From contig OX597826.1 of NCBI GenBank assembly GCA_951406725.2, forward strand, positions 25,792,001 to 25,856,000: 64,000 nt of DNA, written 5' to 3'. The stretch's first letter is position 1. Every line of letters starts with the position of its first letter. The stretch is from Octopus vulgaris. Lineage: Eukaryota. Shown here one piece after another: positions 60,159 to 61,163 of this stretch. The notes under the pieces were generated by a model, which searched no databases, had not been told where the DNA came from, and was given only the letters and a program-made list of their open reading frames with translations. The position numbers and the translations under genes are program-made.

Positions 60159-60307
60159 CATGCATATATAGTACAATATTAATATATTAGATGGATATGT
60201 GTGTGTATGTATTTATAAATGAACATATGTATGTGCATTTATATATATATATATACATATAACACTATTAATAAAATAGTAGATGGAATGTGTAACAATT
60301 TTATTGG

Positions 60308-60349
60308 GTACAACACATGTTTCGACCCGTTCTGGGTCTCTTCAGGTAC
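60308..60349 (-). ncRNA. minimal type-I hammerhead ribozyme
   Basis: gtac-CTGAAGA-gaccc agaac gggtc-GAAA-catgtg-TT-gtac. Stem I extends via ttttattg/caataaaa. Confidence 0.88.
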
Positions 60350-60830
60350 ATCAATAAAAAGTCTCACTAGAGACTATGCGAGTGTATTAACACATGCGTG
60401 TGTGTGAAGCTTCGCACAGACGTGAGTATCTTGCTTTATGTACGCATCTATGCACATATTTATCCATGCTATGTACGTATTTTTATGTATATATACACGT
60501 GCGTACCTTCATATACGAGCTCCTGTACATGTATGTATATATGCGTTCATACGTGTGCGTATGCGCGTGTATCTACAAGAACACAAAAAAAGTTTCGCCT
60601 ACGTATTATCTTCTTTTCAACTTCTACTTCCTTCTCTTTCTCTTAACCGTTACAACAGCAAAAGCTGATTACATTATTTTCTCTAAACTAGAATGTATAA
60701 TCATTACGCTCATATTTGAAATATTTGTGTTTCAATAATTTTTCTCTGATTTTACTCATTCTCGAATTTGATGGACATATAGCCGTACTTAAGCCGACTC
60801 AAGAAATCTCTAGTGAGACTTTTTATTGAT

Positions 60831-60872
60831 GTACCTGAAGAGACCCAGAACGGGTCGAAACATGTGTTGTAC
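60831..60872 (+). ncRNA. minimal type-I hammerhead ribozyme
   Basis: Identical 42-nt core to 60308-60349. Confidence 0.88.
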
Positions 60873-61163
60873 CGAATAAAGTCCATTACACATTCTATCT
60901 CTTATTTTATTAATACTGTTACCCCAAACGTCACTACGCAGTTCCTGCAATCAATTCTACAGGTAACAATACCACAAGGCAATCGAAACTGTGCTGGTGC
61001 TTTACTCATCAGTTTCTAGAAATGTTCTTTATGTTGCATGTCTCATATCTCTATTTGTTTCTTTCGTTGTTAAAAAAAAATAGTTTGTTTTCCATGATTT
61101 TGTTTTTATGTTCTCGTTTCTCATTTTGTTCACGCTTTCTTTTATGTCCTGTACATATATATT

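Follow-up and report, generated by a model that had tools for sequence, protein, structure and literature searches.

A head-to-head pair of hammerhead motifs in an octopus intron, probably formed at insertion of a Penelope-like element

Introduction

Two hammerhead motifs facing away from one another, on either side of a non-coding spacer, raise the question of how such an arrangement came about and whether it acts in RNA. The case examined here lies in the first intron of a predicted Octopus vulgaris gene, in a window of 64,000 nucleotides (the whole stretch of DNA that was analysed). The earlier note had read it as a non-autonomous, Penelope-derived unit and as a possible switch between dsRNA with ADAR editing and self-cleavage. 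We regard it as likely that the segment represents the 3' terminus of a Penelope-like element (PLE) with dispersed copies, to which an inverted copy of its own ribozyme end was joined head-to-head on the 5' side, and that it is inert as a ribozyme. A neutral origin is, to the same degree, likely.

Results

Organization of the inverted cassette

The inverted repeat is real, and the previously described arms of ~ 112 bp around ~ 435 bp can be delimited as a left arm at 60260-60373 (minus strand) and a right arm at 60807-60921 (plus strand), 92% similar over 115 alignment columns and separated by a 433 nt spacer (60374-60806). The claim of ~ 70 identical inner nucleotides and diverged outer parts also holds, since the exact match comprises 67 nt at the inner end (60307-60373 and 60807-60873) and all nine differences between the arms are confined to the outer 48 columns. 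The probability of an exact run of such length is P = 0.002, a value somewhat too small because four of the nine differences sit within 5 nt of each other. A-to-G hyper-editing does not account for the nine differences. The cassette folds with z = -20 compared to 20 shuffles, and the extended stem I loses one pair through a change in the right arm at 60874.

Adjacent to the left junction is a (TA)n-type run (60240-60259), presumably the target, as many ends of the family described below adjoin (TA)n runs. The left arm appears as an inverted, 5'-truncated copy of the pseudo-LTR end, terminating at the recurrent end of the family (equivalent to 60921). The “spacer” (60375-60806, plus strand) corresponds to the 3' UTR/pseudo-LTR body of the family, with a divergence of about 9% from the majority sequence, and it is followed by the right arm, a pseudo-LTR end with the ribozyme, in which the inner 67 nt equal the family majority and the outer 48 carry four private changes. 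The cassette had been thought to end at 60920, but the element actually continues to 61011 with a 3' extension, or tail (60922-61011, plus strand), found on the right end only and devoid of the last ~ 33 bases of the family. The cut tail adjoins a different, very high-copy repeat (61012-61150), the summed contig depth of which is far above that of the cassette in four runs, and which hides the right insertion junction.

Hammerhead motifs

Both hammerhead copies are recognized by the Rfam model Hammerhead_1 (RF00163) with 29.6 bits (E 5e-5), short of the gathering score of 34; at gathering thresholds there was no Rfam match anywhere in the 64-kb window. MicroRNA matches obtained at E-value level were discarded as TA/CA-rich noise. 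The left copy of the type I motif, detected also by motif scan, extends over 60308-60349 (minus strand), with a predicted cut after 60312 on that strand, and the right copy, sense in the host intron, over 60831-60872 (plus strand), with a predicted cut after 60868. The two intact, outward-facing hammerheads reported earlier are thus present, with the core elements CUGAAGA, a 5-bp stem II and GAAA preserved in both arms and a GUU triplet ending at 60868. GUU is cleaved more slowly than GUC. Stem III is reduced to 2 bp inside a self-complementary 8-mer (self-duplex -6.0 kcal/mol), and the constrained hammerhead fold lies 1.6 kcal/mol above the minimum in both arms. In its core, stems I and II, and short palindromic stem III, the predicted ribozyme has the features of a minimal, dimer-type type I hammerhead. 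The GUU triplet is among those listed as cleavable (PMC3138052).

The Penelope-like element family

When the octopus genome (2.8 Gb) was queried with the cassette, 837 candidates were retrieved, 40 of which were scored. Other scored places match the spacer and the right arm at up to 89%, and the arm-spacer-arm arrangement is absent from all 39 of them. The 39-nt ribozyme core was found within three mismatches at 173 genome sites, versus none for the reversed control, and a Poisson fit gives a copy number of about 340, which is a lower bound. Other copies run ~ 33 bases past the equivalent of 61011, usually into (TA)n. A sister subfamily (L134, L144, L146, L149, and L156) is characterized by a CCGAAGA core and a GUC triplet, with an identical 39-mer at six sites among the matches listed.

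On their 5' side, longer copies proceed into a microsatellite-rich UTR and further into decayed endonuclease coding frames. As an illustration, locus L086 displays in succession an inverted ribozyme arm, RT thumb, cysteine-rich linker, endonuclease, UTR, ribozyme, and tail. The profile constructed from four endonuclease pieces retrieves a 710-aa protein, P0006 (E 8e-8), which matches in addition the thumb piece of L086 (37%, E 1e-24, BLASTP) and the linker of L019 (E 5e-6, BLASTP). On its motifs, we take P0006 to be an RT with a C-terminal GIY-YIG-type endonuclease, and the labels RT thumb, linker and endonuclease given to the family pieces are presumed in the same way. Pfam disclosed nothing significant for family fragments, P0001, P0004, or P0006, and a PDB search with P0006 gave no match. 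The cysteine-rich linker could be read in L004, L007, L019, and L086, and it aligns with P0006. The family accordingly resembles, in predicted features, the EN+ type of PLE, with a PLE-type RT, a putative C-terminal GIY-YIG endonuclease, and a hammerhead in the pseudo-LTR. A CX2-5CxxC-like linker preceding the predicted C-terminal endonuclease fits Neptune or Nematis as these are defined in PMC8557442.

The genome holds many PLE families, as indicated by 12,246 candidates in the endonuclease search; among the 150 places scored from it, there was no intact copy of the cassette's own family. The window itself presumably harbours another PLE, seen as decayed endonuclease-like and RT-thumb-like frames at 24545-24889 and 25291-25665 (minus strand). 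Fragments at 30580-32892, 16960-17801, and 48580-49284 (plus strand), and at 61171-62034 and 193-987 (minus strand), we take to resemble RTs of other retrotransposons and a mariner-type transposase.

Origin from a Penelope element, as proposed in the earlier note, is borne out by the dispersed family, by RT and endonuclease pieces in its longer copies, and by their matches to P0006. Because longer copies carry these pieces, the cassette belongs to a coding PLE family, as a copy truncated at its 5' side, and is not a separate non-autonomous unit; its junction is particular to the locus, and cut lengths vary among copies.

Host gene and predicted behaviour of the transcript

Mapping of P0002 by tblastn revealed four exons, 100% identical apart from one boundary row. 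The first coding exon, with a signal-peptide-like sequence and splice sites read at its borders, lies at 58900-58990 (plus strand), and the remaining three are located outside the window, at window-equivalent positions 65485-65745, about 68560-68645, and 73284-73472. Intron 1 thus begins at 58991 and ends beyond the window. The predicted 208-aa protein (source label Octopus vulgaris) has an 82% homolog in a second octopus species, exons 1 and 2 have no Pfam match, and the product is predicted to be secreted. Since the candidate exon is exon 1 and exon 2 lies beyond the window, the plus-strand ribozyme is intronic and sense, as the earlier note had suspected.

In the computed fold of the whole transcript, of either strand, each of the 42 bases of the ribozyme is paired to the far arm with a probability of 1.0, which agrees with the proposal that fold-back competes with the ribozyme. 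With ribozymes that face outwards, transcription of either strand invariably reaches the antisense copy ahead of the sense one. In the host pre-mRNA, the antisense arm would emerge first and would zip with the ribozyme into a 115-bp hairpin stem. The lone sense ribozyme also lacks a partner copy, which a stem III of such shortness requires. We consider a cleavage switch unlikely, as the ribozyme belongs to the dimer-dependent type and is preceded by its antisense copy on either strand; together with a single sense ribozyme per strand, these features lend no support to the suggested choice between dsRNA/ADAR and cleavage. We infer that the ribozyme is off by default. A-to-I editing would strike essential core adenosines, so it would more likely damage the core than free the ribozyme. 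ADAR may well act on the hairpin, and likewise on the 11 other inverted-repeat pairings which the host gene contains and which derive from SINE-like repeats.

Published assays are in line with an inactive single copy. The one minimal PLE hammerhead assayed as a single motif showed no detectable cleavage, while dimers were cleaved weakly (PMC4209133), amphibian hammerheads with short helix III work as dimers (PMC7229834), and the ribozyme of an Anolis PLE needs protein for cleavage (PMC11167929).

The unmutated inner segment

Compared with the column majority of 35 other copies (29 chosen by similarity to the window and six by endonuclease), both arms have 0/67 differences in the inner segment, whereas the 35 control copies have 2-15, with a mean of 6.1. 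The rest of the window copy differs by about 9% in the spacer, and by 4/48 (right) and 5/48 (left) in the outer arms, all of these being private changes. None of 82 other arms covering this stretch is free of inner differences (each has at least one), even though they were picked for a good core. Throughout the genome, 14 sites have the exact core, and the two arms in the window are the only ones among them to match at 67/67.

One unmutated arm is expected about once per 340 copies (P0 0.002-0.005), and two at one locus are not expected. Simulations gave 0.001-0.016 loci with two unmutated arms in the family without conversion, and 0.01-0.12 such loci with conversion at 1-3 in 16 loci. The number of effective trials exceeds one family, because there are many PLE families and the locus was flagged for being intact. 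Our best guess is that arm-to-arm conversion and chance explain the unmutated 67 nt: one arm probably remained unmutated by chance, and a conversion event would have copied it onto the other. The two arms have no derived change in common, so a positive mark of conversion is missing at this locus. In 13 other two-arm loci, identity was not generally higher near the loop. One two-arm locus, L146 (1484-1747 and 2563-2819), includes a 102-nt identical tract, for which P = 0.0008 is an underestimate, since each gap column was counted separately. Of the 12 substitutions between the arms of this locus, nine are A/G when read on one strand, which may be a trace of editing or a matter of chance. Human Y palindromes offer a distant analogy, as their inverted arms are reported to undergo conversion with a bias towards the ancestral state (PMC3723533).

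Preservation by selection would be a different explanation. According to it, the PLE stub was co-opted, and selection maintains the 67-nt duplex and the ribozyme so that pairing, ADAR, or a dimer in trans tunes cleavage or splicing of the host transcript. The 0/134 changed inner bases next to 8-10% divergence in the remainder of the copy, the uniqueness of both arms among the exact-core sites, the sense position within an intron of a predicted gene, and the cleavable triplet (PMC3138052) all speak for it. However, the constraint must span loops and 24 bases outside the core, yet it tolerates the broken stem I pair at 60874, and the compensatory changes expected of a selected duplex are not observed. 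The precedence of the antisense arm on both strands, the expected damage of core adenosines by editing, and the many other inverted pairings in the host gene weigh against it as well. We consider co-option unlikely, and its more specific form, a retroelement fold-back domesticated in intron 1 of a secreted-protein gene, in which the selected duplex would couple dsRNA/ADAR to cleavage or splicing, a little less likely still.

Sequencing runs suggest, though weakly, that the left side may not be fixed, which is also at odds with co-option. In two runs with different organism labels (X1 and X8), contigs match the spacer from exactly 60466 rightwards, with 0 differences in 154 nt and with 2 differences plus 4 gap letters over 124 nt, respectively, while leftwards they extend into 521 and 314 letters of other sequence. 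A structural allele without the left arm, or with the left arm displaced, is a possible interpretation. The run variant table is useless for arm polymorphism because of paralog pile-up. One DNA run has no cover at 60403-60436, a hole which in itself proves nothing.

An artefact of assembly or polishing, drawing both arms to the family majority, is very improbable. A repeat with hundreds of copies can draw mis-mapped reads, and both arms do equal the majority exactly; against this, contigs of two runs, one of them possibly from the assembly's own sample, span the junction and reach 28 and 30 bases into the left inner arm with 0 differences, and the outer arm parts retain their private changes.

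Frequency and origin of the inverted layout

To survey the layout, 84 loci were inspected, which represent 87 of the 98 core sites beyond the two in the window, among 100 listed of 173. Left out were 11 sites: a pair on C43, a near-duplicate pair on C5, six that the cassette search had covered (one of which carries an inverted piece), and one other. The C43 sites, which are on the same strand at a distance of 4.9 kb, were considered as a full-length element, but this was rejected because they are a segmental duplicate without element ORF.

An inverted piece within ~ 1.5 kb accompanies the ribozyme in 25/84 loci, and two opposite-strand hammerhead arms are present in 13/84. The true share of two-arm loci is below 13/84, because a locus of this kind has double the chance of being picked and because two in this set are mutual segmental duplicates. 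Tandem same-strand ribozymes within ~ 1.5 kb were found in 0/84 loci; the spacing of full-length tandems would be wider than this. Truncation points vary from locus to locus, as do the inverted pieces, while 3' ends cluster at two places, 36/112 at the equivalent of 60904-60925, where the left arm also ends, and 60/112 at or beyond 60994. At 20.58-20.63 Mb on G000:C25, three loci (L098, L099, and L100) represent a segmentally triplicated insertion of the same PLE family. Two of these copies have outward-facing ribozyme arms ~ 800 bp apart with another insertion between them, and differ from the majority at only 1-2 of 93 columns.

That the cassette moves as a unit, as a retrozyme-like or fold-back non-autonomous element, is a reading suggested by the lack of a coding part, by the ribozymes, and by the argued derivation of animal retrozymes from PLEs (bioRxiv 10.64898/2026.07.22.740005), but it is largely refuted, and hardly credible, given an arrangement found in none of the 39 other scored places (40 of 837 candidates), variable inverted pieces and truncation points, and the lack of same-strand tandems within ~ 1.5 kb in the 84 loci.

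Insertion of a truncated PLE copy, the preferred explanation, can be sketched as follows. The endonuclease of the element would have cut a TA run, reverse transcription from the tail end would have stopped after ~ 670 nt, and a second short cDNA, started at the internal end (60921), would have been joined in reverse. The arm and spacer arrangement likely stems from one such insertion event at the TA run. The layout as such is a known, frequent PLE insertion arrangement, already in print (PMC4209133, PMC8557442).

Discussion

The organization described here has counterparts in several systems. For EN+ PLEs, an inverted 5'-truncated copy beside the 5' end and a one-sided tail have been reported (Craig et al. 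2021, PMC8557442). The octopus family shares with them 5' truncation, the inverted copy at the 5' end, the one-sided extension, the pseudo-LTR ribozyme, and the microsatellite target, and its longer copies run through RT, cysteine-rich linker, and endonuclease in the manner of Neptune and Nematis as presented there. It differs in the length of the extension (~ 120 nt versus 30-40 bp in that account) and in the lack of an intact copy among the 150 scored places.

Metazoan PLEs include dual minimal hammerheads on opposite strands, at distances of 100-700 bp (Cervera and de la Pena 2014, PMC4209133). Similarities to these extend to the short palindromic helix III, the dimer type, the many single dispersed copies, and the spacing of opposite-strand pairs; a 5-bp helix II, the GUU triplet, and both arms unmutated over 67 nt set the octopus locus apart from the hammerheads described in that source.

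Two reverse-transcription starts explain copies with and without a tail in Poseidon of Anolis (Frangieh et al. 2024, PMC11167929), and match the two 3'-end clusters of the octopus family; AT-rich targets are common to both. Poseidon is of a different clade, and its ribozyme overlaps the ORF start.

Metazoan non-LTR retrozymes (PMC7229834; bioRxiv 10.64898/2026.07.22.740005) resemble the cassette in being non-coding and PLE-related and in having a type I hammerhead. They are, however, head-to-tail tandems that release monomers, while the cassette is one inverted pair, from which no unit can be released on one strand. The tandem head-to-tail units that characterize retrozymes are missing at this locus, with its one sense ribozyme per strand, and in the 84 surveyed loci. 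By title, we found no paper on octopus PLE ribozymes, and supplements of PLE papers may list related octopus families.

If the core were selected, the locus would represent an antisense-gated ribozyme of natural origin within an intron of a cephalopod, and would connect heavy RNA editing with the control of a ribozyme. Taken as an ordinary PLE stub, the locus is of little importance in itself, and adds one more octopus PLE family that follows the known inverted layout, with two preferred 3' ends ~ 120 nt apart. If its unmutated segment is due to conversion, such loci would provide a natural test, on a small scale, of how repair acts between short inverted arms.
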